Origin: a virus
Lineage: Duplodnaviria; Heunggongvirae; Uroviricota; Caudoviricetes
DNA: 51,775 bases
Reading direction: 5' to 3' (one strand)
IMG/VR virus record: IMGVR_UViG_2687453454_000002
Part shown: positions 1,659 to 49,155 of the stretch, in pieces
Position numbering within the stretch: the first letter of the stretch is position 1
Layout of the letters: each line of letters begins with the position of its first letter
Notes under the pieces: generated by a model
What the model saw: only the letters and a program-made list of their open reading frames with translations
Told to the model about the DNA's origin: nothing
Database searches by the model: none
Translations under genes and position numbers: made by a program

Positions 1659-2738
1659 TTAAGAATCAGCCTGACTCGGGATCAGTTTTTGCCAGATAAC
1701 TGAAACGTATTTTGCCTGGTAACGGGCGTCATCAAGTGCATTATGGCGCTCACCTTCGAATGGAATAGCCGTTCTGGCATCGAAGTCTATGGCTTTCCCC
1801 AGCTCAACGATTGTGCGTACATCGCGATCGTTGTAGTAACGCCACGGGCAGGGGATCCCCTGCCGTTCGTATGAACGGCGCAAAATCGTGTTGTCGAAGT
1901 TGGCTCCATTTCCCCAAACCTGAACAAAAAATTCACCGGAGTTTTCGTCGATAAATTCTCGCAATTGTAACAGTGCATCATCTAACGGGATTTCATCGGT
2001 CATAATGGCAGATTGCGCTTCGCGTGATTGCTTAAGCCACCATTTAATGGTGTCCCGATCAATGACTCCGCCAGCAGTTTCCAGATCGATAGTCTTACTA
2101 AATTCCGGTCCCATATCTCCGGTTTGCGGATCGAAAAATATTGCACCTATTGAGATGATCGGGGCATCAGGATTTTTTCCCATGGTTTCAAGGTCGATCA
2201 TTAGATGGTCACACGTCCTGCTGGTGGATGTGATTTCGTGATGACCGTTCACCTTAATTGGGTGATCTGCCGTCTCGCCAGTTTCATTATCGCTATTGTG
2301 ATGCTGATTGCCGCCAGTGTTCTCCTTGTGTGGATGTTCAGCGCCTTCCATTTCCTCCGGATCATCTTCCTGAACTTCAACCTGATACTCTTCATCGAAT
2401 GTTTCTTGGTATGTTGCGTCGCCCATCACCGCGCCACAATCAGGGCAGTTGCCGCCGCCGGTCTGACCGCAGGCGGTGCAGACTTTTTCCACTTCCTGTT
2501 GCGCTACTGGTTCAGGCTGTTTCGTTTCTGGCTCGTTTTGTAACGCATTTGGACTGTTTTGTTCCGCTTTTTGGTAGTTCCGTTCCGATTCATGCTGGTT
2601 CTGGTTCACAGAATCGCGGGTCTGGAGCCCCTTAACCCATTTCGGATCATTCGGGTCACTAATCCCTTCAACAAATTCACCACGTGATGCAGCAAGCAAC
2701 TTATCGGCGTCAGGCTGGCTGATATTGGCTGCCTGCAT
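1659..2738 (-). CDS. DnaQ-like (DEDDh) 3'-5' exonuclease with N-terminal Zn-ribbon and acidic linker
   Basis: C-terminal half carries Exo I (LMIDLETMG), Exo II ([11 protein letters not shown]) and Exo III (HNALDDARY) motifs; N-terminal CTACG..CPDCG ribbon followed by an acidic low-complexity stretch. Confidence 0.7.
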
Positions 2739-2987
2739 AATTTTGTTTACTTCGTCAGCGGTAACTTTTATCGGCTCTGGTTGTTCTGAATCTTCAGCGG
2801 TATCTACATTTTGCGGTAAGCCCGTGTATGTGCCATTTTTTCGGGCAAAATATTCTTCTTTTGTGATTTCAGTGGCGCCAGCAGCCAGTGCCTTATCCAG
2901 ACCAGAGAGTTTGTTTGCGCGACCGTATTTTTCTCCGTCCTTATCTGCGAAGAGGAAATAGAACGGCCCCTCACGCTCTACAGATGG

Positions 2988-4130
2988 TTAAGCTTCCGGC
3001 GCGGTTTCATTTTTTGGGATATCAGATACCTCAGTTTCCACTGCATCAGTTTGTGTTTCTGATGACTGGAGAACATCAACAGTGCCCAGGTCTGTTTCTT
3101 CATTCTCAAACACGCCCTTTGTCGTCAGGTATTCGCAGATATATTTGTTCAGTGCTACGGGATCTTTGTGAATGTCGATCGGACGCTCACGGACAAGGCC
3201 AAAAATAGTTTGGCGGTCGTAGCGAAGGGCATCAGGCTGTTTGCGCATTGATGCCGAGATACGCTTCCAGTCTTCGCGGTCGTTGTCGATAACTTCTTTT
3301 TTTGCCCAGCGATGGATGCTGCCGTCAATGTTTCCGGCATCCACATCACTAGGCCAGAGAGCGTAGGCCAGTTCGTCATCCAGTGTTTTCCATGTCTGCT
3401 TGTATTCGCGATGAATGGCAGCAATGACCGGGCTGATTTTTCCTGTTGAATTTTCAGTGTACTGTTGATTGGCTCTGGCGCGGGCGAGATCAACAACAGA
3501 CGTGTATTTTCCGGTTTCCTTGCGTTCACCTTCGCGACGTTTTTTCCAGATGCGCATCTCTGCCTGAATTTCGGGCCATTTAGCACCAGGAATACATTTA
3601 TGCTTAACCCACCCAATGGCGTGCAACTTAAGCTCCGGATACATGGCGTTAACTTCTGGCATTTTCATCAACGCTTCAACGATATGTCCGTCGAATGTTG
3701 CCATGTCTTCCTGCAACAATTCCTGTGCGCTAATAACCATATCAACGGTGATGTTTTCACATGTGTCGAACTTAACCATGACAGCGTTCTGTACTTCAGG
3801 GGCCAGCTTGTCAAAAGTGACGTTCATCGGATCGGATTCAGTCTCAACCGGGACAAAAGAAGCAGACTCCTCATCCCAGCGGTTTTCCTGCATATATTCA
3901 GCATCCCATGAATCGAGGGCAGGGCGGGGTATGCCAGGTTTATCCTCGCAGACAATAAATTTATAAGCGCAGTCCTGAGCAGCCGGATAATGTTCCAGGA
4001 ATTGCCAGTGAAATTTTGCTCGAGCACGGCGTTCGTCGCCAGCTTCAATGGCTGTGGCTACAGCCACAGCGCCTTCTTCCCTTGTTGCCAGTTCGTCAGG
4101 AATAGCGGCGCAAATAAAGACTTTACTCAT
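2988..4130 (-). CDS. ydfE: YdfE-like early-region protein of unknown function (full length)
   Basis: ORF-track entry 2988..4166 begins with TTG; the ATG at 4130 has a GAGG Shine-Dalgarno about 10 nt upstream. Position matches ydfE downstream of ydfD in Qin (recalled gene order). Confidence 0.6.
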   Translation of the reverse strand: MSKVFICAAIPDELATREEGAVAVATAIEAGDERRARAKFHWQFLEHYPAAQDCAYKFIVCEDKPGIPRPALDSWDAEYMQENRWDEESASFVPVETESDPMNVTFDKLAPEVQNAVMVKFDTCENITVDMVISAQELLQEDMATFDGHIVEALMKMPEVNAMYPELKLHAIGWVKHKCIPGAKWPEIQAEMRIWKKRREGERKETGKYTSVVDLARARANQQYTENSTGKISPVIAAIHREYKQTWKTLDDELAYALWPSDVDAGNIDGSIHRWAKKEVIDNDREDWKRISASMRKQPDALRYDRQTIFGLVRERPIDIHKDPVALNKYICEYLTTKGVFENEETDLGTVDVLQSSETQTDAVETEVSDIPKNETAPEA

Positions 4131-8855: not shown

Positions 8856-9374
8856 TGGAATGAAACGCAAATACCGGTAAGCCAGATTCTGGCACTGACA
8901 GACAGAAAACCTGTTATCTGTCAACGAACAGGGAAAAAACGATAAAACCCACTGGATTATTTTTATGAAAGAGGCATCCAGTGAGTAGATTCGTAAGGCT
9001 ACAGATACGTATATCTGAATAATTAAATTCAGTTCTGTAAATAAAATTTAATCCTTAACCGGATGGATTTCTGCACCCTCAGAACATCAGGAGGCCGCCC
9101 GAAAGGGCGGTAGTGAAATGCGAAAGTTCAAAATTATTATTGAAACGGGAATAGCTGGTGGAGATTTTGAGGATGTATTCGAAGTGGACGATGACGCAAC
9201 ACCTGAGGAAATTCATGACGGAGCATAAGAAATTTTCTTTAACTACTGCAATTACTCATACCACGAAATAAAAGACGATGAGGAAGAACAAAGTGGCTGA
9301 TTTTTGTTCAGCTAAATATAACATCAGTTTTGAGTAAGCGTGCAGCAAGAACCGTATTGACGGGGATGTGTTAT

Positions 9375-10910
9375 TCAGTCGGCAGTGCTACGCGCCAGGG
9401 GGAGCAGTTCGCCGACCCGGTTTATCGGCCAGTCGGCTATGACGTCAAGGACATAGCGGAGGTAGCTTTCTGGCTCCACTCCGTTCAGTTTGCACGTCCC
9501 GATCAGGCTGTACAGCAGCGCTCCCCGCTCTCCTCCATGATCCGAACCGAAGAACAGGTAGTTTTTGCGGCCCAGACTGACCATCCGCAACGCATTTTCA
9601 GCGATGTTATTGTCCGCCTCAGCCCAGCCATCATCTGCATAGTACGTCAGCGCCGGCCACTGGTTCAGGGCGTATGCGAACGCTTTCGCCAGTTCTGAGT
9701 GTCGCGACAGGGTTTTCATCTTTTCACGCAGCCAGCTTTCCAGGGATTTCAGCAGCGGTTTCGTTTTCAACTGACGTTCGGCAAGGCGCTGCTCCGCCGT
9801 CATTCCCCTTATCTCTGCCTCGATGGCGTACAGTTCGCCGATCCGTTTCAGCGCTTCCTCCGTCAGGGCTGACGGGGTGCGAACGTGCACATCGTGGATT
9901 TTACGGCGGGCGTGAGCCCAACAGGCGGCTTCCGTTATCCGGCCATCCCGGTACAGCTCGTTGAACCCGGCGTATGCATCCGCCTGCAGTACACCACTGA
10001 ACCCCGCAAGATGGGTCTGCGGATGGATGCCTTTTCTGTCCGGGCTGTAAGCGAACCACACCGCCGGCGCCAGCGTTGACCCGGCGTTACGGTCGTCACG
10101 AACGTAGGTCCATAACCGCCCGGTCTTCGTTTTCTTATTGCCTGGCAACAGCACCGGGACAGGCGTGTCATCAGCATGGAGCTTACCGTCAGTCAGCACA
10201 TAGTCCTGAAGCGCTTCTTCCAGCGGTGACAGTAGCCGGCAGCATGCATCCACCCAGCCCGACAGCAGTGAACGACTCAGCTCCACGCCCTGGCGGCCGT
10301 ACATTTCAGACTGGCGGTACAGCGGGGTGTGCTCTGCATACTTTGAGATCAGCACGCGGGCCAGCAGCCCCGGTCCTGCGATACCCCGCTCGATGGGCCG
10401 TGAAGGCGCGGGGGCCTGCACGATGGCATCGCACTGAGTACAGGCATGCTTTTCACGTACAGTCCGGATAACCCGGAAGGCGCTGCGCATCAGCTCCAGC
10501 TGTTCGGCGGCATCCTCACCCAGATAGCTCAGCGAGCCTCCACATTCCGGGCAGCATGACGCTGCCGGCAGCAGCCGTTTTTCATCGCGGGGGAGTGATT
10601 CGGGGAACGGTTTGCGGGTGCGGGTTTGACGCAGCGGGCGCTGCACGGCCGGGTCGTCAACCCGACCGGTAAGGGTATCACTTTCTTTCTGAAGTGCCTT
10701 CAGGTCAGCTTCCATCTGTGCGATACGACGGGAGACTTTTTCCGAGCGGCTGCCGAAGTTCATCCGGCGCAGCTTATCCAGCTGTGCCTGCAGATGGTCT
10801 ATTTCGCGTTCACGCTCGTTCAGCTTTTCCTGCAGGGCACGGTTCAGCGCCTCCTGTTCGGCAAGGAGACGTTTCAGTGCATTGATATCGTCAGGAAGTG
10901 AGCTGCTCAT
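9375..10910 (-). CDS. tnpC: IS66-family transposase TnpC (511 aa)
   Basis: 511-aa ORF with the leucine-zipper-like N-terminus and overall architecture typical of IS66 TnpC. Confidence 0.85.
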
Positions 10911-10958
10911 ACCGGGTATATTACCAGGCTCATTCAGCGTCGACCAGGATAAAGAGGC

Positions 10959-11306
10959 TTACAACATAGTCAGGGACGTAAGCAGTCTTTTAGGCTGCCG
11001 CCAGTCGATACCTTCCAGCAGCATCGCCAGCTGTGCCGGTGTGAGGAACACTTTGCCATCCCGGGCTGACGGCCAGGCGAAGCGGCCGCGCTCCAGCCGT
11101 TTGGTCAGCAGACACAGTCCATCGCCGGTAGACCAGAGGAGCTTTACCTGACTGCCATTACGCCCACGGAAGATAAAAACGTGACCTGACATCGGATCGT
11201 CTTTCAGCGTCGTCTGCACCTTTGCCGCCAGGCCGTTGAAGCCGTTTCTCATATCGGTGATGCCAGCGACCAGCCAGATCTTTGTCCCTGATGGTAATGG
11301 GATCAA
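10959..11306 (-). CDS. tnpB: IS66-family TnpB (115 aa)
   Basis: 115-aa ORF directly upstream of tnpC, overlapping tnpA by 4 bp; IS66 Orf2 size. Confidence 0.8.
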   Translation of the reverse strand: MIPLPSGTKIWLVAGITDMRNGFNGLAAKVQTTLKDDPMSGHVFIFRGRNGSQVKLLWSTGDGLCLLTKRLERGRFAWPSARDGKVFLTPAQLAMLLEGIDWRQPKRLLTSLTML

Positions 11307-11707
11307 CGTTTGAGCTCCCGTATCAGCAGGTTCAGGATATTTTCGCTGATGGCACCATTCAGACGGAGTGATCCGTGCCGGAACGTCACTTCACAGCTGA
11401 TATTGAGTGATTCAGGTGTCGCAGCAGCTACAGGTTGTGACCGGGGGGAGGTTGTAGGGACAACATCTTCGGCATCAAGTGTTATCGGGAGCAGCTCAGG
11501 CACGTTGTTTTCTGTTGTTGAAGGAGGACGTAGTTTTCCTTCGCGCCAGTACTGGCGCCACTTGAACAGCAAATTATCGTTGATCCCATGCTCACGAGCG
11601 AGTTGCGCTACGGAGATCTCTGGTCGATGCGAGAGTTCAACCATTTTGATTTTGAACTCAACGGGATAATTAGGGCTTTTTTTACGCACTGCGGTTAATG
11701 ATTTCAT
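11303..11707 (-). CDS. tnpA: IS66-family TnpA (134 aa, HTH)
   Basis: 134-aa ORF with HTH-like VAQLAREHGINDNLLFKWRQ; first gene of the IS66 operon. Confidence 0.8.
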   Translation of the reverse strand: MKSLTAVRKKSPNYPVEFKIKMVELSHRPEISVAQLAREHGINDNLLFKWRQYWREGKLRPPSTTENNVPELLPITLDAEDVVPTTSPRSQPVAAATPESLNISCEVTFRHGSLRLNGAISENILNLLIRELKR

Positions 11708-12984: not shown

Positions 12985-14298
12985 ATGATCAAAGAGACTG
13001 TTACGATGAGTCATAAGGAACTCCACCGACTTCAGATTATTCAGGAACAAGCTGCGGCACGCATTGGCATTTCTATTCGGCAGGTTAAACGTCTGGTGCA
13101 ACGGTATAGAAATGAAGGGCCTTCTGGTCTGGTTTCCCACCGACGTGGAAAGCGTCCTAATAATTCCTTTTCTACTGAATTCAGAGCAACAGTAATTTCA
13201 CTCCTCAAAGGCCGTTACGCTGATTTTGGACCTACGTTTGCGTGCGAAAAATTGCGCGAGATACACGGTTTATCTTTATCCGTTGAAACTCTCAGAAAGT
13301 GGATGATAGAAGAGGGGTTATGGCGTGAACGCCGTCGTAAAATTGCCCGTATATATCAACGCCGCATGCGACGACCATCTTACGGTGAACTGATCCAGAT
13401 TGATGGCTCACCTCATGACTGGTTTGAAAATCGAGGCCCCAGATGTACACTGATCGTTTTCATTGATGATGCCACCAGTGCGTTGATGGCGTTGCGTTTT
13501 GTGCCTGCTGAAACAACCCGGGCTTACATGGAAACCCTCCGGGGTTACCTTAATGATCATGGCGTACCGCTCGCTCTCTACTCTGATAGACACAGTATAT
13601 TCAGGGTAAATAACCCAGAGCGGGAAGGTGAGCTGACCCAGTTCACTCGTGCGATAAAGACACTGGGCATCGAGCCAATCCATGCCAACAGCCCGCAGGC
13701 AAAAGGGCGGGTAGAGCGCGCCAATCAGACACTACAGGACAGGCTGGTCAAAGAAATGCGGCTTCAGAATATCAGTGATATTGAAACAGCAAATGCATGG
13801 TTGCCGACCTTTATTGAAGCCTATAACAACCGGTTCGCTACGTCGCCTCGTACTACTGATAATGCTCATCTTGATGTGCACCATTCTGAAGAGGAACTGG
13901 GTTATATCTTCAGCCTACAGGCGAAGCGCGTTCTGTCTAAAAATCTCACTTTCCAGTACAAAAGCAGTGCGTTTCAGGTACGCAGTGAGGGCCGGGGATA
14001 TCGACTTAGGCATTCGGTTGTTACTGTATGCGAGAACTTTGACGGTGAAATTAACGTTCTGTATGACGGGAAAGCGCTGGGCTGGGAAAAGTATGTTGAT
14101 GGCCCGGAGCCTATACCACTGGATGATGAAAAGAGTGTCCATGAACGAGTGGATAATGCCCGTATTGATTTACGCTCAAAATACTATGTTAAACCTAAAG
14201 CTGACCATCCCTGGCTTACGCGCCGAACGCAAAGTCATCAGCAAGTTAAGCCCCCGAAGTTACCTAAAAAGAAGCCTGATCCCGATAAAAAAGATTGA
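12985..14298 (+). CDS. DDE transposase with rve integrase core (IS481/ISNCY-like), 437 aa
   Basis: N-terminal HTH, then DDE-type core motifs (IQIDGSPHDW, LYSDRHSIF, QAKGRVERANQTLQDRL); no IstB-like partner; terminal inverted repeats not resolved. Confidence 0.75.
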   Translation: MIKETVTMSHKELHRLQIIQEQAAARIGISIRQVKRLVQRYRNEGPSGLVSHRRGKRPNNSFSTEFRATVISLLKGRYADFGPTFACEKLREIHGLSLSVETLRKWMIEEGLWRERRRKIARIYQRRMRRPSYGELIQIDGSPHDWFENRGPRCTLIVFIDDATSALMALRFVPAETTRAYMETLRGYLNDHGVPLALYSDRHSIFRVNNPEREGELTQFTRAIKTLGIEPIHANSPQAKGRVERANQTLQDRLVKEMRLQNISDIETANAWLPTFIEAYNNRFATSPRTTDNAHLDVHHSEEELGYIFSLQAKRVLSKNLTFQYKSSAFQVRSEGRGYRLRHSVVTVCENFDGEINVLYDGKALGWEKYVDGPEPIPLDDEKSVHERVDNARIDLRSKYYVKPKADHPWLTRRTQSHQQVKPPKLPKKKPDPDKKD

Positions 14299-18230: not shown

Positions 18231-18700
18231 ATGAACCTTGAAGCCTTACCAAAATATTACTCCCCAAAATCTCCAAAATTGAGCGATGACGCTCCAGCGA
18301 CAGGCACCGGTTGTTTAACAATTACGGATGTAATGGCAGCGCAGGGGATGGTGCAGTCGAAAGCACCACTTGGGTTGGCCTTATTTCTGGCAAAAGTTGG
18401 TGTTCAGGACCCTCAGTTTGCGATTGAAGGCCTGCTAAATTACGCGATGGCACTGGATAACCCGACATTGAACAAATTGAGTGAAGAAATCCGGTTACAG
18501 ATTATTCCTTACCTCGTGAGTTTTGCCTTTGCTGATTACTCCAGGTCTGCGGCAAGTAAGGCTCGCTGTGAGCATTGTTCAGGTACGGGATTTTATAATG
18601 TATTGCGCGAAGTGGTGAAACACTACAGACGCGGGGAATCTGTAATCAAGGAAGAATGGGTGAAGGAACTATGTCAGCATTGCCATGGTAAGGGCGAAGC
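18231..18700 (+). pseudogene. quuQ: Q-family late antiterminator, 3'-truncated by IS1
   Basis: ATG at 18231 with GGAGA upstream; Zn-finger-like CEHCSGTG...CQHCHGKG. The reading frame runs into IS1 at 18701 (last residues and the stop at 18720..18722 are IS1 sequence); K-12 QuuQ is recalled as about 250 aa. Confidence 0.7.
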
Positions 18701-18755
18701 GGTAATGCTGCCAACTTACTGATTTAGTGTATGATGGTGATTTTAAGGTGCTTGC

Positions 18756-19031
18756 GTGGCTTCCATTTCCATCAGATGTCCTTCCTGCTCCGCTACTGAA
18801 GGCGTGGTGCGTAACGGCAAAAGCACTGCCGGACATCAGCGCTATCTCTGCTCTCATTGCCGTAAAACATGGCAACTACAGTTCACTTACACCGCCTCTC
18901 AGCCCGGTACGCACCAGAAAATCATTGATATGGCTATGAATGGCGTCGGATGTCGCGCCAGTGCACGCATTATGGGCGTTGGCCTCAACACGGTTTTACG
19001 TCACTTAAAAAACTCAGGCCGCAGTTGGTAA
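18756..19031 (+). CDS. insA: IS1 InsA (91 aa)
   Basis: [51 protein letters not shown]... is IS1 InsA. Confidence 0.9.
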
Positions 19032-19453
19032 CCTCGCGCATACAACCGGGCAGTGATGTGATTGTCTGCGCTGAAATGGATGAACAGTGGGGCTACGTCG
19101 GTGCTAAATCACGTCAGCGCTGGCTGTTTTACGCGTATGACAGGATACGGAGGACGGTTGTGGCGCACGTCTTCGGTGAACGCACTCTGGCCACACTGGA
19201 GCGTCTTCTGAGCCTGCTGTCGGCCTTTGAGGTCGTGGTATGGATGACGGATGGCTGGCCGCTGTATGAATCACGCCTGAAGGGAAAGCTGCACGTTATC
19301 AGCAAGCGTTACACTCAGCGCATTGAGCGACATAATCTGAATCTGAGACAACATCTGGCAAGGCTGGGACGGAAGTCACTGTCGTTCTCAAAATCGGTGG
19401 AGCTGCATGACAAGGTCATCGGGCATTATCTGAACATAAAACACTATCAGTAA
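18950..19453 (+). CDS. insB: IS1 InsB' reading frame (expressed as InsAB' by -1 frameshift)
   Basis: 167-aa ORF in the -1 frame overlapping the insA 3' end; typical IS1 layout. Confidence 0.85.
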
Positions 19454-43545: not shown

Positions 43546-43556
43546 GTGGGGTGAAT

Positions 43557-45731
43557 ATGGCAGTAAAGATTTCAGGTGTACTGAAAGACGGCACAGGAAA
43601 ACCGGTACAGAACTGCACAATCCAGCTGAAAGCAAAACGTAACAGCACCGCGGTGGTGGTGAACACGCTGGCCTCAGAAAATCCGGATGAAGCCGGGCGT
43701 TACAGCATGGACGTTGAGTACGGTCAGTACAGCGTTATTCTGTTGGTGGAAGGATTCCCGCCGTCACATGCCGGGACCATCACCGTGTATGAAGATTCCC
43801 GACCCGGTACGCTGAATGATTTTCTCGGTGCCATGACGGAGGATGATGCCCGTCCGGAGGCTCTGCGCCGTTTTGAACTGATGGTGGAAGAGGTGGCGCG
43901 TAACGCGTCCGCGGTGGCACAGAACACGGCAGCCGCGAAGAAGTCAGCCGGCGATGCCGGCACATCTGCCCGTGAGGCGGCAACCCATGCGACTGATGCT
44001 GCAGGCTCAGCACGCGCAGCCAGCACGTCAGCCGGACAGGCCGCTTCGTCGGCTCAGTCAGCGTCTTCCAGCGCAGGAACGGCATCAACAAAGGCCACTG
44101 AAGCATCAAAAAGTGCTGCCGCTGCAGAGTCCTCAAAAAGCGCGGCAGCTACCAGTGCCAGTGCCGCGAAAACGTCAGAAACGAATGCTGCAGCGTCACA
44201 ACAATCAGCAGCCACTTCTGCATCCACCGCGACCACGAAAGCGTCAGAAGCTGCCACCTCAGCCCGGGATGCGTCGGCTTCAAAAGAGGCGGCAAAATCA
44301 TCAGAAACGAACGCATCCTCGAGCGCCAGTAGCGCAGCTTCCTCGGCAACAGCGGCAGGAAATTCCGCGAAGGCGGCAAAAACGTCAGAGACGAACGCCA
44401 GGTCTTCTGAAACGGCAGCGGGACAGAGCGCCTCGGCTGCGGCAGGCTCAAAAACAGCGGCTGCGTCGTCTGCCAGTGCAGCGTCAACAAGTGCCGGGCA
44501 GGCCTCAGCCAGTGCCACCGCCGCCGGAAAATCGGCAGAAAGCGCCGCATCGTCTGCTTCAACAGCCACAACGAAGGCTGGCGAAGCCACTGAACAGGCC
44601 AGCGCAGCAGCGAGGTCTGCTTCCGCAGCGAAGACATCCGAAACGAACGCGAAAGCGTCGGAAACCAGCGCAGAATCCTCAAAAACGGCTGCCGCATCGT
44701 CAGCCAGTTCGGCGGCGTCATCGGCATCATCGGCGTCTGCTTCAAAAGATGAGGCGACCAGACAAGCGTCAGCAGCGAAGAGCAGCGCCACGACGGCATC
44801 CACGAAGGCGACAGAGGCTGCTGGCAGTGCGACGGCGGCAGCTCAGAGCAAAAGTACGGCAGAATCCGCAGCAACGCGCGCCGAGACAGCAGCAAAACGG
44901 GCAGAGGATATTGCATCCGCCGTGGCGCTTGAGGATGCGAGCACGACGAAAAAGGGGATAGTACAGCTCAGTAGTGCGACTAACAGCACTTCCGAGTCAC
45001 TGGCGGCAACACCAAAAGCCGTTAAGGCCGCGTATGACCTGGCTAACGGGAAATACACCGCACAGGATGCAACGACAGCACAGAAAGGGATAATCCAGCT
45101 AAGCAGCGCGACCAACAGCACGTCTGAAACGCTTGCCGCGACACCAAAGGCAGTAAAAGCAGCCAATGACAATGCTGAGAAACGTCTGCAGAAAGATCAG
45201 AACGGTGCGGATATCCCTGGCAAAGATACCTTTACGAAAAATATTGGTGCCTGCCGTGCCTTCGGTGGGTCAGTAAGCACAACAACAGGAAACTGGACGA
45301 CTGCACAGTTTATCGAGTGGCTGGATTCTCAGGGAGCATTTAACCATCCATACTGGATGTGCAAGGGTTCCTGGTCTTATGGCAATAATAAAATCATTAC
45401 TGATACTGACTGCGGTAATATTCATCTCGCCGGAGCTGTCATTGAAGTAATGGGGATAAAGTCAGCGATGACGATCCGCATTACCACACCGACCACCTCC
45501 ACTGGTGGTGGAACAACTAACGCCCAGTTTACCTATATTAATCACGGAACAGATTATTCACCTGGCTGGCGAAGGGACTATAACTCCAGAAATAAGCCAA
45601 CGGCATCAGAGATCGGGGCGTTACCGTCAGGTGGAACAGCAGTATCATCAGTTAATCTGGCTTCAAAAGGTCGGGTAACCGCGCTGACAGACAATACGCA
45701 GGGGGCAGCAGGTCTTGAGTTATACGAGGTG
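43557..45731 (+). pseudogene. stf: Side tail fibre Stf, 5' part (interrupted by IS3 at 45732)
   Basis: MAVKISGVLKDGTGKPVQNCTIQL... lambda Stf-type N-terminus, long Ala/Ser-rich repeat region, conserved KGI(V/I)QLSSATNSTSE(S/T)LAATPKAVKAA repeats; the stop codon TGA is the first three bases of IS3. Confidence 0.9.
43920..44940 (+). repeat. Ala/Ser-rich tandem-repeat region within stf
   Basis: Imperfect nucleotide and peptide repeats (for example KTSETNA appears four times; ...SAxxSAxxAA...), producing long spurious ORFs in other frames and on the opposite strand. Boundaries are approximate. Confidence 0.6.
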
Positions 45732-45761
45732 TGATCCTACCCACGTAATATGGACACAGGC

Positions 45762-46628
45762 CTAAGCGAGGTTCTTGTTTTCAAATTGTTCCGGACTGAG
45801 GCCGCCACACCAACTGTGCCGCCGCCACCGATTGTAATCACATTCGATATAATTAAACACCGTTGCCCGCATTATTTCCCGGCTGATAAAGTGTTCTCCA
45901 TGGATACATTCCACTTTCAGCGAATGAAAGAAGCTTTCCACGCAGGCATTATCGTAGCAGCAACCTTTTGCGCTCATACTTCCACGCAGATTATGCCGCT
46001 TCAGTTGCGCCTGATAATCTGCTGAACAGTACTGGCCTCCACGGTCCGTGTGAACGATAACGTTCCGGGGCCTCTTACGCCGCCACAGCGCCATCTGCAG
46101 GGCATCGCAGGCCAGTTGCGCCGTCATGCGTGGCGACATTGACCAGCCAATAACGGCACGTGACCACAGGTCAATGACCACTGCCAGATACAGCCAGCCT
46201 TCATCTGTACGTAAGTACGTGATGTCTCCTGCCCACTTCTGGTTCGGGCCACTGGCGTAAAAATCCTGCTCCAACAGATTTTCTGACACAGGCAGGCCGT
46301 GTGCGCGGTAGCTGACCGGGCTGAACTTCCGGGAGGCCTTTGCCCTCAGTCCCTGACGGCGCAGGCTTGCCGCCACGGTTTTTACGTTAAAGGGGTAACC
46401 CTGAGCACGCAGTTCATCCGTCAGGCGTGGGGCACCGTAACGCTGTTTTGACCGGGTAAAAGCCGCGAGGACAACGCTGTCGCAGTGTTGGCGGAACTGC
46501 TGACGCGTGCTTATCCTTGTCCGCCGCTGACACCACGTATACCAGCCGCTGCGGGCCACCCGGAGCACGCGGCACATTGCTTTGATGCTGAACTCAGCCT
46601 GATGTTTTTCAATAAAGACATACTTCAT
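45762..46628 (-). CDS. insF: IS3 transposase OrfB / InsF (288 aa, DDE)
   Basis: [36 protein letters not shown]... is IS3 InsF. Confidence 0.9.
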
Positions 46629-46924
46629 TTCAGGCGCTTCGCGAAGTATGTCGCGGCCTTTTGGAGGATAGCCAGCTCTTCATCCCGTTCTGCCAGCTGG
46701 CGTTTGAGACGTGCAATCTCGGTAGACATCTCCAGTTCACGTTCAGAAGACGTCTGCTGATTTTGCTGTTTACTGCGCCAGTTGTAGAGTTGTGATTCAT
46801 ACAGGCTGAGTTCACGGGCTGCGGCAGTAACACCGATGCGTTCAGCAAGCTTCAGGGCTTCACTGCGAAATTCAGGCGAATGCTGTTTACGGGGTTTTTT
46901 ACTGGTTGATACTGTTTTTGTCAT
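46625..46924 (-). CDS. insE: IS3 OrfA / InsE (99 aa)
   Basis: [54 protein letters not shown]... is IS3 InsE; overlaps insF in the frameshift arrangement. Confidence 0.9.
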
Positions 46925-46989
46925 GTGAGTCACCTCTGACTGAGAGTTTACTCACTTAGCCGCGTGTCCACTATTGCTGGGTAAGATCA

Positions 46990-47892
46990 GTGTATAACAA
47001 CGGATATCCAACAGCGTATGGAAATATCATTCACCTGAAAGGGATGACAGCCGTTGGCGAAGGTGAGTTACTCATCGGCTGGAGTGGTACAAGCGGTGCT
47101 CATGCTCCGGCATTTATTCGTTCACGACGGGATACGACCGACGCAAACTGGTCGCCGTGGGCGCAGCTTTACACCTCGGCTCATCCTCCTGCAGAGTTTT
47201 ATCCAGTCGGTGCACCAATCCCGTGGCCATCAGATACCGTTCCGTCTGGTTATGCCCTGATGCAGGGGCAGACTTTTGACAAATCTGCATACCCGAAACT
47301 TGCAGTTGCTTATCCGTCAGGCGTGATCCCTGATATGCGTGGCTGGACGATTAAGGGCAAGCCCGCCAGTGGTCGGGCCGTATTATCTCAGGAACAGGAC
47401 GGCATTAAATCGCACACCCACAGCGCCAGCGCATCCAGTACGGATTTGGGGACGAAAACCACATCGTCGTTTGATTACGGAACCAAATCCACGAATAACA
47501 CCGGGGCGCATACCCATAGTATTAGCGGGACCGCAAATAGTGCCGGTGCGCACCAACACAAGAGTTCCGGTGCATTTGGTGGCACGAACACGAGCATTTT
47601 CCCTAATGGTTATACCGCGATTTCAAATCTAAGCGCGGGGATTATGAGCACAACAAGCGGTAGTGGCCAGACTCGTAATGCAGGGAAGACATCATCAGAT
47701 GGTGCTCATACCCACTCGCTGTCCGGCACTGCTGCAAGCGCAGGCGCACATGCACATACTGTCGGTATTGGTGCTCATACGCACTCCGTTGCGATTGGTT
47801 CACATGGACACACCATCACCGTTAACGCTGCTGGTAACGCGGAAAACACCGTCAAAAACATCGCATTTAACTATATTGTGAGGCTTGCATAA
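46990..47892 (+). pseudogene. stf: Side tail fibre Stf, 3' part (C-terminal 299 codons downstream of IS3)
   Basis: In frame with the 5' part once IS3 and one GTG copy are removed (...[23 protein letters not shown]...); His/Gly/Ala-rich distal region GAHTHS...GAHAHT...GSHGHT. Confidence 0.85.
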
Positions 47893-48467
47893 TGGCATTC
47901 AGAATGAGTGAACAACCACGGACCATAAAAATTTATAATCTGCTGGCCGGAACTAATGAATTTATTGGTGAAGGTGATGCATATATTCCGCCTCATACAG
48001 GTCTGCCAGCAAACAGTACCGATATTGCACCGCCAGATATTCCGGCTGGCTTCGTGGCTGTTTTCAACAGTGATGAGTCATCGTGGCATCTCGTTGAAGA
48101 TCATCGGGGTAAAACGGTTTATGACGTGGCTTCCGGCGACGCGTTATTTATTTCTGAACTCGGTCCGTTACCGGAAAATGTTACCTGGTTATCGCCGGAA
48201 GGGGAGTTTCAGAAGTGGAACGGCACAGCCTGGGTGAAGGATACGGAAGCAGAAAAACTGTTCCGGATCCGGGAGGCGGAAGAAACAAAAAACAACCTGA
48301 TGCAGGTAGCCAGTGAGCATATTGCGCCGCTTCAGGATGCTGCAGATCTGGAAATTGCAACGGAGGAAGAAATCTCGTTGCTGGAAGCATGGAAAAAGTA
48401 TCGGGTATTGCTGAACCGTGTTGATACGTCAACTGCACAGGATATTGAATGGCCAGCACTGCCGTAG
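47892..48467 (+). CDS. tfa: Tail fibre assembly protein Tfa (191 aa)
   Basis: 191-aa ORF immediately after stf with start/stop overlap; Tfa-type sequence ([43 protein letters not shown]...). Confidence 0.85.
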
Positions 48468-48564: not shown

Positions 48565-49155
48565 TTATATGTCAGGTGTCTGAAGTTTTGCTTTGGCTCT
48601 TAAAATGGTTTGCCGCGAGGTTTTGAATTCCCGGGCAATGGCACTTATACTTACACCTGACTTAATTCGTTCGAATACCGCCTGTTTCTGTTCTTCATTT
48701 AACACAGGTGGTCGACCAAAACGTTTCCCTGCGCCGCGGGCTCTTACTATCCCGGAATGAGTGCGTTCAAGTAAAAGGTCTCGTTCAAATTCAGCGACTG
48801 CTGAAATTACTTGCATCATCATTTTTCCTGTTGGACTGGTCAGGTCAATGCCCCCCAATGCTAAGCAATGCACTCTGATACCTGTTTCGGTCAGTTGTTC
48901 CACTGTTTTCCTGATATCCATTGCATTACAACCAAGGCGATCCAGTTTTGTCACAATCAATTGATCACCACATTTCAGGCGAGCAAGCAACCGGTTAAAA
49001 CCAGGACGCTCACTGGTTGCTGCTGAGCCGCTAATGTGTTCTTCGATTATTTGCTGAGGTTTGATTTTAAAACCTGCACTTTCGATTTCCCGGCGTTGAT
49101 TTTCGGTGGTCTGATCCAGCGTTGATATCCGACAGTAAGCAAAAATTTGAGACAT
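48565..49155 (-). CDS. pin: Pin-family serine DNA invertase (196 aa)
   Basis: [60 protein letters not shown]... with resolvase/invertase catalytic Ser region and C-terminal HTH; convergent with tfa. Confidence 0.9.

Follow-up and report, generated by a model that had tools for sequence, protein, structure and literature searches.

The side tail fibre gene (stf) of the Qin-type prophage analysed here is interrupted by a complete copy of IS3, and we consider it very probable that this reflects one ordinary IS3 insertion in a decaying prophage, at a palindrome that is a by-product of the coding sequence and has no role of its own. According to this model, IS3 would have transposed once into codon 725/726 of an stfQ-type stf, in a Qin prophage at ydfJ of E. 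coli that was full length but already degenerating when the element arrived. Copy-out/paste-in transposition with a 3-bp staggered cut would account for the duplicated GTG, a TGA from the IS3 end would truncate Stf after Val725, and the C-terminal 299 residues, with the collar and the HxH receptor-binding region, would thereby be detached; the insertion would then have been inherited in a small lineage, seen in 10 complete genomes out of 5426. The event itself is already known, in that the PGAP pipeline of NCBI annotates IS3 at this place in ten RefSeq genomes. Its significance is small, since it amounts to a cryptic prophage losing a dispensable tail-fibre gene to a textbook IS insertion. It could serve as a lineage marker for a small E. 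coli clade, and it illustrates that codon constraints alone can give rise to a neat palindrome where an IS has landed. Positions are those of the window, the whole stretch of 51,775 nt that was analysed (Table 1).

The IS3 element and the split fibre gene

The element is 100% identical over its 1258 bp to copies in many E. coli genomes, and 4075 records carry sequences at least 99% identical to it, the matched copies being annotated as "IS3-like element IS3 family transposase". It begins with TGATCC and finishes with GATCA, and its terminal inverted repeats are imperfect (28 matches in the first 40 positions), which together with its length agrees with the TG...CA ends, imperfect repeats and size of about 1.2–1.3 kb typical of the IS3 family. 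The transposase is encoded on the minus strand by two overlapping ORFs, in which Pfam finds HTH_Tnp_1 (orfA) and rve/rve_2 (orfB), as in other members of the family; RefSeq combines them into a single joined CDS (45762..46924) labelled "programmed frameshift", a mode of expression that is thus predicted by annotation. GTG stands on both sides of the element, and removal of one copy restores the target, in keeping with the 3-bp duplication of IS3-family elements.

As it stands, the 5' stf ORF stops at 45734 with a TGA that consists of the first three bases of IS3, and because these bases supply the stop codon the truncated Stf carries no foreign residues. When IS3 and one GTG are removed in silico, the two parts join in frame (...GLELYEV/YNNGYPTAY...) into a gene of 3075 nt that encodes 1024 aa from the ATG at 43557, or 1026 aa from an upstream GTG at 43551. 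The preliminary description, which had reported a 1258-bp IS3 between GTG repeats and an in-frame join giving a fibre of about 1025 aa, was accurate in these respects. Over its 3075 nt the reconstructed gene matches the uninterrupted stf of E. coli 88-3493 (WP_000279080.1), located at the same Qin/ydfJ locus, without a single mismatch, and the J and Lom proteins are also identical between the two prophages. Within the 3' part, RefSeq lists 47191..47892 as a pseudogene fragment.

The Pfam domains of the reconstructed protein are PF08400 (aa 1–134), PF03406 (twice) and PF07484 (aa 798–845). An N-terminal prophage tail fibre domain, a collar region, a tfa gene next to stf, and J and lom upstream together identify a Stf/Tfa system of the lambda type. 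Further similarity is found to phages with invertible fibre genes: aa 538–687 are 69% identical to Sv' of Mu and aa 680–786 are 64% identical to Sv of P1. The fibre would be expected to have lost its function, and the insertion was probably selectively neutral.

Table 1. Coordinates of the features in and around the interrupted stf gene
Feature	Position	Strand	Basis and remarks
stf 5' part, codons 1–725	43557..45731	+	ORF list, translation, Pfam PF08400 + PF03406; RefSeq CDS 43557..45734 in near-identical EC26
Palindrome left part	45719..45731		Left arm GTTATAC 45719–45725, spacer GAGGT 45726–45730, first right-arm base 45731; sequence, scan, hairpin fold
Target site duplication GTG, left copy	45729..45731		Sequence
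IS3	45732..46989	-	1258 bp; IRR end 45732, IRL end 46989; 100% identity to E. coli copies
IS3 orfB, DDE transposase / integrase core	45762..46628	-	Pfam rve, rve_2, HTH_21; RefSeq joins it to orfA
IS3 orfA, helix-turn-helix protein	46625..46924	-	Pfam HTH_Tnp_1; RefSeq annotation
Target site duplication GTG, right copy	46990..46992		Sequence; also opens mechanical ORF 46990–47892
Palindrome right arm	46992–46998		Within/adjoining the 3' stf part
stf 3' part, codons 726–1024 + stop	46993..47892	+	Rest of the P1-Sv-like module, collar domain, HxH-repeat distal region
tfaQ, tail fibre assembly gene, intact	47892..48467	+	Pfam PF02413; RefSeq
pinQ, serine invertase gene	48565..49155	-	Pfam Resolvase + HTH_7

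The two stf parts are contiguous in intact homologues: of 5426 complete E. coli genomes 803 have an uninterrupted junction, as do all 80 IMG/VR loci, every one of the latter with the exact 19-mer of the target. Both IS3 junctions are carried by the same 10 of the 5426 genomes, in one orientation, the carriers being EC26, XJW9B263, EM03-18-08, VE-F5, Ec73552, EC23, 45E, 23CRST028, 10R and BN01. A reverse junction probe found IS3 in the opposite orientation in none of the 5426, and no independent insertion at the site was detected in this set. Since the orientation is the same in all carriers and never reversed, the insertion looks like a single ancestral event rather than a hotspot, and from the identical junctions and similar map positions the ten carriers do look like descendants of one insertion.

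The locus is identified as Qin at ydfJ by the split ydfJ and by the presence of ydfK, ynfT, dicB/dicA, relBE and cspI. The prophage is full length: it runs from int to pinQ, and its head and tail genes are complete. Besides IS3 it contains ISEc22, an ISNCY fragment and an exo pseudogene, and its antiterminator gene is cut by an IS1; IS3 is therefore one of multiple decay events.

The target palindrome and the module structure of stf

The target, GTTATAC-GAGGT-GTATAAC (19 bp), is an inverted repeat whose two 7-bp arms match perfectly across a 5-nt spacer; according to an inverted-repeat scan of the excised window it is the only one of its kind in the 3-kb stf. For its 35-nt context, folding gives a DNA hairpin with an energy of -4.4 kcal/mol (z -2.9). 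The repeat had been described as centred on the insertion point; the repeat itself is confirmed, but not the centring, because the centre of the GTG duplication lies 2 bp to the right of the palindrome axis, which places the insertion inside the palindrome but off-centre. Of random 3-bp sites in comparable DNA, 2.3–2.6% are in contact with an inverted repeat of 7 bp or longer, so that the coincidence, although not trivial, is mild, the more so as it was spotted post hoc.

The codons that make up the palindrome encode a conserved peptide, (L/M)-Y-E-(V/A)-Y-N, and three of the seven base pairs are forced by the amino acids, the remaining four hanging on synonymous choice. Near-identical stf alleles keep the 7-bp repeat. 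The homologues in P1 and D6 have another, 6-bp repeat (TGTATG-AGG-CATACA) on the same axis, set by two Tyr codons, and those in Goslar and SSU5 have a 4-bp repeat at this position; in Gifsy-1, Fels-1, SI7 and Vibrio phage Pylo no inverted repeat is found at the homologous position. The palindrome is thus preserved in related uninterrupted genes as far as close relatives are concerned (the exact 19-mer in the 80 IMG/VR loci), and is weaker or absent in divergent ones. Based on this pattern, we suggest that it is best read as a by-product of coding for L-Y-E-V-Y-N, with no demonstrable part in recombination or in IS3 targeting.

The preliminary description placed the site at the junction between the proximal and distal domains of the fibre, and one could imagine that tail fibres swap their C-terminal cassettes at the palindrome, which would then be a hotspot of recombination or the boundary between two modules. 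We regard this as highly unlikely. It is true that stf is highly mosaic (of 3326 genomes with a match to a 600-bp junction probe, just 803 cover 80% or more of its length) and that the 3' fragment holds the receptor-binding region, but the similarity breaks down elsewhere. Partial matches in E. coli start at probe positions 245–248, 437, 466, 503–511 and 560, never near the junction at 300/301, while phage matches break near nt 611–623 and about nt 957 of a 1500-nt probe with the junction at 750. In the 80 IMG/VR loci the high-scoring alignments, which start at nt 469–1547 and end at gene nt 2414–3783 (most commonly 2711–2735), all cross the site. Taken over E. coli genomes, phage records and IMG/VR loci, the mosaic breakpoints fall near aa 544, 685, 794 and 905. 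The insertion lies in the middle of a module resembling P1 Sv (aa 682–787) that is contiguous in P1 Sv, D6, P7, Goslar, SSU5, Gifsy-1, Fels-1 and Vibrio phages; with a query of aa 680–790, 70 of 75 matching phage records cover at least 80%, straight over the site. Nor is the inverted repeat conserved in divergent homologues, which also argues against a function in module exchange.

Invertase crossover sites and IS3 target choice

The palindrome was also proposed to be a relic crossover site, in which case it would be a former or quasi site left over from a once invertible tail-fibre segment, the enzyme being a Din-family serine invertase (Gin/Cin/Pin; here the neighbouring PinQ). A pin-type invertase gene does lie 1.6 kb downstream, parts of Stf have their homologues in Mu Sv' and P1 Sv, which are invertible-segment sequences, and the 26-mer that surrounds the palindrome (CTTGAGTTATACGAGGTGTATAACAA), which we compared with known crossover sites, agrees on its minus strand with Mu gix at 14 of 26 positions, including the central ACCTCG. 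This last resemblance is matched or exceeded by 149 other 26-mers in the window. Din sites are 26 bp long, with a 2-bp core flanked by imperfect inverted half-sites of 12 bp each (TTNTCNNAAACC-NN-GGTTTNNGANAA), a spacing that the arms of the 19-bp palindrome do not fit. The consensus TTNTCNNAAACCNNGGTTTNNGANAA, validated on pix of e14, gix of Mu and cix of D6 (each with at most 2 mismatches), is missed at 8 of 17 positions by the palindrome in its best register. It has no match at up to 4 mismatches anywhere in the 51.8-kb window, and matches with 5 mismatches (41567, 51041) are both outside stf.

The position of the palindrome is equally at odds with a crossover site. In P1 the distance from the annotated cixR crossover to the homologous codons, which are internal to the C segment, is 270 nt (90 codons), and those of D6 lie about 265 nt from each cix. 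The equivalent of gix in Stf is found at aa 559–567 (FTKNIGACR, corresponding to FIQNLGLQE in Mu), some 160 residues nearer the N-terminus than the IS3 insertion (aa 725/726). A partner site is absent as well, as the window contains no second copy of the 19-mer at up to 4 mismatches. The palindrome therefore lacks the consensus match, the inverted second site and the location at an Sc/Sv boundary that characterize Din sites, and on these comparisons the relic-site interpretation appears largely refuted already; we give it almost no credence. Full-site identity scans of the window against five real crossover sites produced just scattered matches at chance level. The best such match in stf, at 45215–45240 (17/26 identity with pixR), was judged to be due to chance, its register being off by 16 nt from the homologous one.

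A different role for the palindrome would be that of a target determinant that drew the IS3 transpososome as a hairpin, a cruciform or dyad-symmetric DNA. We find this quite improbable, and about as improbable the more general proposition that short dyad-symmetric or hairpin-prone DNA adds to the target choice of IS3 beyond G-NN-[NWN]-NN-C; if it were true, the codons for L-Y-E-V-Y-N in stf would be an intrinsically favoured IS3 landing pad. The stability of the hairpin fold given above would fit such targeting. IS3 also shows a weak preference for dyad symmetry, and the stf site fits the left half and centre of G-NN-[NWN]-NN-C. Among the 18 independent IS3 targets with both flanks known, one has a 7-5-7 palindrome whose end lies in its duplication, and 15 are in contact with a repeat of 4 bp or more, against an expectation of 47% (p=0.002), which is suggestive only at that arm length. 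The set is small because assemblies break at IS ends and because 35 of 54 complete IS3 copies have no recognisable 3–4-bp duplication: a scan of genome contigs provided 19 stretches and a scan of metagenomes one usable new site.

This two-sided hint, from a small sample, is not upheld, since the larger one-sided set is negative. There, repeats of at least 4 bp touch the duplication in 47 of 256 distinct flanks (18.4%, against 15.2% expected, p=0.10), no arm length is enriched, and repeats of at least 7 bp occur in 3 of 256. Dyad complementarity around the duplication centre is at background (2.25 vs 2.30 pairs). At the stf site itself, the two axes are offset by 2 bp, only 1 of 9 mirrored positions around the duplication centre is complementary, and the 5426 genomes contain no second independent insertion.

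The weak consensus G-NN-[NWN]-NN-C was observed in about 250 natural IS3 flanks. No target motif for IS3 turned up in the literature consulted, and none is reported in PMC10379815 or PMC5009759; if not described before, the consensus may be of modest interest to modellers of IS insertion bias.

Comparison with known systems

The element corresponds without differences to IS3 of E. coli (IS3 group; e.g. the K-12 copies), being alike in the 1258-bp sequence and the TG...CA ends, in the overlapping orfA/orfB with their predicted programmed frameshift, in the rve DDE domain and in the 3-bp duplication. Only the insertion site is particular. With the switches of Mu (Gin/gix), P1 (Cin/cix) and e14 (Pin/pix) the region shares the order of fibre gene, tfa gene and serine invertase gene, but it has neither 26-bp crossover sites nor an inverted duplicate Sv'/U' cassette, and tfaQ and pinQ are convergent; in neither position nor sequence is the IS3 target homologous to gix, cix or pix.

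A close chromosomal counterpart is the Qin remnant stfQ-tfaQ-pinQ of K-12 MG1655, which occupies the same locus and whose distal stf is identical (100% over probe nt 245–600, with an uninterrupted 19-mer). In K-12, however, a deletion has fused nohA to distal stfQ, whereas the prophage described here is full length and riddled with IS3, IS1, ISEc22 and an ISNCY fragment.

The split of the fibre gene into N-terminal and C-terminal ORFs has a parallel in laboratory lambda (lambda PaPa), in which Hendrix and Duda are said to have found, in 1992, that a 1-bp frameshift in stf yields orf401 and orf314. With its J-dependent tail intact, lambda PaPa can stay viable without side fibres. Here the cause of the split is an IS3 insertion instead of a 1-bp frameshift, and the Qin-type prophage is defective in other respects as well.

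The IS3 element and the interrupted fibre gene

The element that splits the side tail fibre gene stf of this Qin prophage is IS3 itself, and it shows every defining feature that can be tested. It is bounded by imperfect inverted repeats that agree at 28 of the 40 outermost positions, it carries two overlapping ORFs with the expected transposase domains (see the table), and it is 100% identical to copies annotated as "IS3-like element IS3 family transposase". The preliminary description of a 1258-bp IS3 between GTG repeats is thus borne out by the ends, ORFs, identity and flanks. IS3 is present in 4685 of 5426 complete E. coli genomes, and 4075 records contain it at an identity of at least 99%. 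The truncated fibre ends with ...GLELYEV and bears no foreign residues, because its reading frame is closed by a TGA that consists of the three leading bases of IS3. This is an ordinary event, and RefSeq has it in its annotation as a truncated CDS of 725 aa, the IS3 transposase and a 3' pseudogene.

In-silico deletion of IS3 with one GTG produced a 3075-nt ORF of 1024 aa, starting from the ATG at 43557, in agreement with the in-frame fibre of about 1025 aa anticipated earlier. Over all 3075 nt, this healed gene shows 0 mismatches to the uninterrupted gene that encodes WP_000279080.1 in E. coli 88-3493 and lies at the same locus (gene order J, lom, stf, tfaQ, pinQ, ydfK, ynfT, split ydfJ). The two halves are also contiguous in other uninterrupted homologs: the healed junction was found in 803 genomes (600-bp probe, at least 80% covered), and the exact 19-mer of the pre-insertion target is uninterrupted in all 80 IMG/VR loci fetched by the peptide surrounding the junction. 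In its domains the reconstructed protein is as expected for Stf: an N-terminal PF08400 domain, a pair of PF03406 fibre repeats and, at aa 798-845, a PF07484 collar. The next gene encodes a PF02413 assembly protein, and the gene that IS3 interrupts is a stf of the lambda type. The exact healing, the contiguous homologs and the Stf domains therefore confirm the preliminary structural observation throughout.

Features of the Qin prophage discussed in the text (positions in the window)
Feature	Position	Strand	Remarks
Exonuclease gene	1659-4130		pseudogene, internal stop
ISEc22	9371-11707		IS66 family, transposase frameshifted
ISNCY fragment	13006-14028		transposase fragment
IS1	18231-19453		truncates antitermination (Q-like) gene
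Stf aa 538-687	45189-45616		69% identity to Mu Sv'
Stf aa 680-786	45594-45917 plus 46993 onward (aa 680-787)		64% identity to P1 Sv
IS3 insertion site	45726-45731 / 46990-46998		GAG[GTG]TAT
GTG direct repeats	45729-31 + 46990-92		both sides of IS3
IS3	45732-46989		1258 bp, first bases TGATCCTACCC, last bases GGGTAAGATCA
IS3 ORF, 102 aa		-	transposase helix-turn-helix PF01527
IS3 ORF, 288 aa		-	overlaps 102-aa ORF; integrase-core/DDE domains PF00665, PF13333
pinQ	48565-49155	-	intact-looking serine invertase gene, Resolvase and HTH_7 domains, converging on tfaQ

Fibre modules, distribution of the insertion and decay of Qin

The preliminary description placed the insertion at the junction with a distal fibre domain, which is only loosely true: the site (Stf aa 725/726) lies within a module, and the first HxH repeat is about 140 aa downstream. 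Partial matches in E. coli begin at positions 245-248, 437, 466, 503-511 and 560 of the probe, with none near 300/301; those at 245-248 correspond to the K-12 Qin deletion endpoint and an APEC allele. With a 1500-nt probe (junction at 750), phage matches stop at about 611-623 (P2-like H, Mu S') or start at about 957 (T4 gp37-like, lambda Stf). These breakpoints therefore locate module boundaries near aa 544, 685, 794 and 905. All 80 IMG/VR alignments run through the IS3 site and stop within gene nt 2414-3783, with 2711-2735 as the commonest endpoint, and the module of aa 680-790 is covered straight across the site in 70 of the 75 phage records that have it. Such breakpoints and crossing alignments speak strongly against a module junction at the IS3 site.

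The idea of a recombination hotspot fares no better, since the similarity breakpoints lie elsewhere and a single type of junction recurs. The left junction occurs in exactly ten complete genomes and the right one in the same ten, with one IS3 orientation and, in most, similar map positions; a junction probe for the reverse orientation at this site found no complete E. coli genome. With about 813 genomes carrying the allele region, this pattern points to a single inherited event rather than a hotspot. In one carrier, BN01 (NZ_CP187563.1, 2348066-2352330), the IS3/stf junctions are 3965 bp apart (vs 1258 bp) and the left-junction match ends 126 bp into IS3, which suggests a further insertion of ~2.7 kb nested within the IS3 copy.

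The window comprises the entire Qin prophage, from the integrase (20-1300) through pinQ and split ydfJ. Qin is here a cryptic prophage, and given ISEc22, the ISNCY fragment, IS1 and the exonuclease pseudogene, the IS3 insertion is one among its several decay events. In the Qin remnant of K-12 MG1655 (nohA-stfQ' junction) the match runs at 100% identity through the uninterrupted 19-mer; it starts at ~45676 (probe position 245), 55 bp upstream of the IS3 target, so that the K-12 deletion endpoint is near the IS3 site, yet unrelated to it.

The palindromic target and the choice of site by IS3

The target GTTATAC-GAGGT-GTATAAC is, as noted previously, a perfect 7-bp inverted repeat, and the only one so strong in stf; its DNA hairpin is modest (-4.4 kcal/mol, z -2.9). 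It is not centred on the insertion point: its axis passes through the last base of the Glu codon, and that of the GTG duplication, around which only one of nine mirrored positions is complementary, lies 2 bp to the right. In comparable DNA, 2.3-2.6% of random 3-bp sites touch an inverted repeat with arms of 7 bp or more. In the codons TTA TAC GAG GTG TAT AAC (LYEVYN), the amino acids fix three of the seven pairs, namely the TA dinucleotides of both Tyr codons and the Leu T that pairs with the Asn A; the remaining four are a matter of synonymous codon usage. The palindrome, exact in the IMG/VR loci, is weaker or absent in divergent homologs that retain the peptide (L/M)YE(A/V)YNNGY: P1 and D6 have another repeat, of 6 bp (TGTATG-AGG-CATACA), around the same axis set by the Tyr codons, Goslar and SSU5 have 4 bp, and Gifsy-1, Fels-1, SI7 and Vibrio phage Pylo have none at this spot. 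Retention of the peptide without the repeat gives no sign of selection for DNA symmetry.

Natural IS3 ends were gathered from GTDB genomes, IMG/VR and metagenomes. Among 18 independent targets with 3-4-bp duplications and both sides available, inverted repeats of at least 5 bp were not in excess, while those of at least 4 bp occurred in 15 (vs 47%, p=0.002). We take 256 distinct one-sided flanks to be the better test; these show no enrichment at any arm length (18.4% vs 15.2% expected, p=0.10), so that attraction of IS3 by the palindrome is unlikely. Only 19 complete IS3 copies, out of 54 distinct ones, were bordered by a recognisable 3- or 4-bp direct repeat; the others could be the outcome of IS3-mediated rearrangement, of adjacent deletions or of recombination between copies. 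Five short contigs attributed to Candidatus Nanosynbacter, Lamprocystis purpurea, Streptococcus sanguinis and a Bacteroidales MAG also have exact IS3 ends, most probably owing to E. coli contamination or mis-binning in the assemblies concerned.

The only mildly new result is a weak dyad-symmetric preference centred on the duplication, 5'-G-NN-[NWN]-NN-C-3', in 252 distinct natural flanks: G stands 6 nt out from each IS3 end in 54% (24% expected, p about 1e-24), and the middle base of the duplication is A/T in 79% (53% expected). The site in the window matches this preference on the left and in the middle but departs from it on the right. No such motif was found in the literature searched; neither PMC10379815 nor PMC5009759, the latter with only 10 new IS3 insertions, gives a target motif for IS3.

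Comparison with invertible fibre genes and with lambda

The suggestion that the palindrome is a relic invertase crossover site was rejected because of its mismatch to the consensus, its position in the fibre homology and the lack of a partner. A Din-family crossover consensus picked up the pix pair of e14, the gix pair of Mu and the cix pair of D6 at annotated segment boundaries, each site with at most 2 mismatches, compared to 8/17 mismatches for the best register of the palindrome; at up to 4 mismatches nothing matched in the 51.8-kb window. A 26-mer around the palindrome is identical to gix at 14/26 positions, and 149 other 26-mers in the window match equally well or better. Homology bears on the question independently: the constant part of Mu S aligns with Stf aa 504-564, and the gix-encoded FIQNLGLQE falls opposite FTKNIGACR (aa 559-567). 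In P1 the codons that correspond to the IS3 target are found within the C segment, 270 nt (90 codons) away from the annotated cixR crossover; in D6 their distance to each cix is ~265 nt. The window has no second copy of the 19-mer that could act as a partner.

The middle of Stf is a chain of modules common to the fibre parts of invertible segments; D6 S', which aligns with aa 682-787 at 62% identity, has the modules of aa 538-687 and 680-787 in the opposite order. In the window, pinQ is an orphan invertase gene without a recognisable substrate, since we found neither a crossover site at up to 4 mismatches nor an inverted Sv'/U' cassette. The neighbourhood resembles the Din invertible fibre switches only in its pin gene and Sv-like modules, and the IS3 target lacks every testable defining feature of a Din crossover site. 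In outcome the insertion parallels the stf of laboratory lambda, reportedly described by Hendrix and Duda in 1992 as split into orf401 and orf314; that phage can do without side fibres, since it adsorbs through J.
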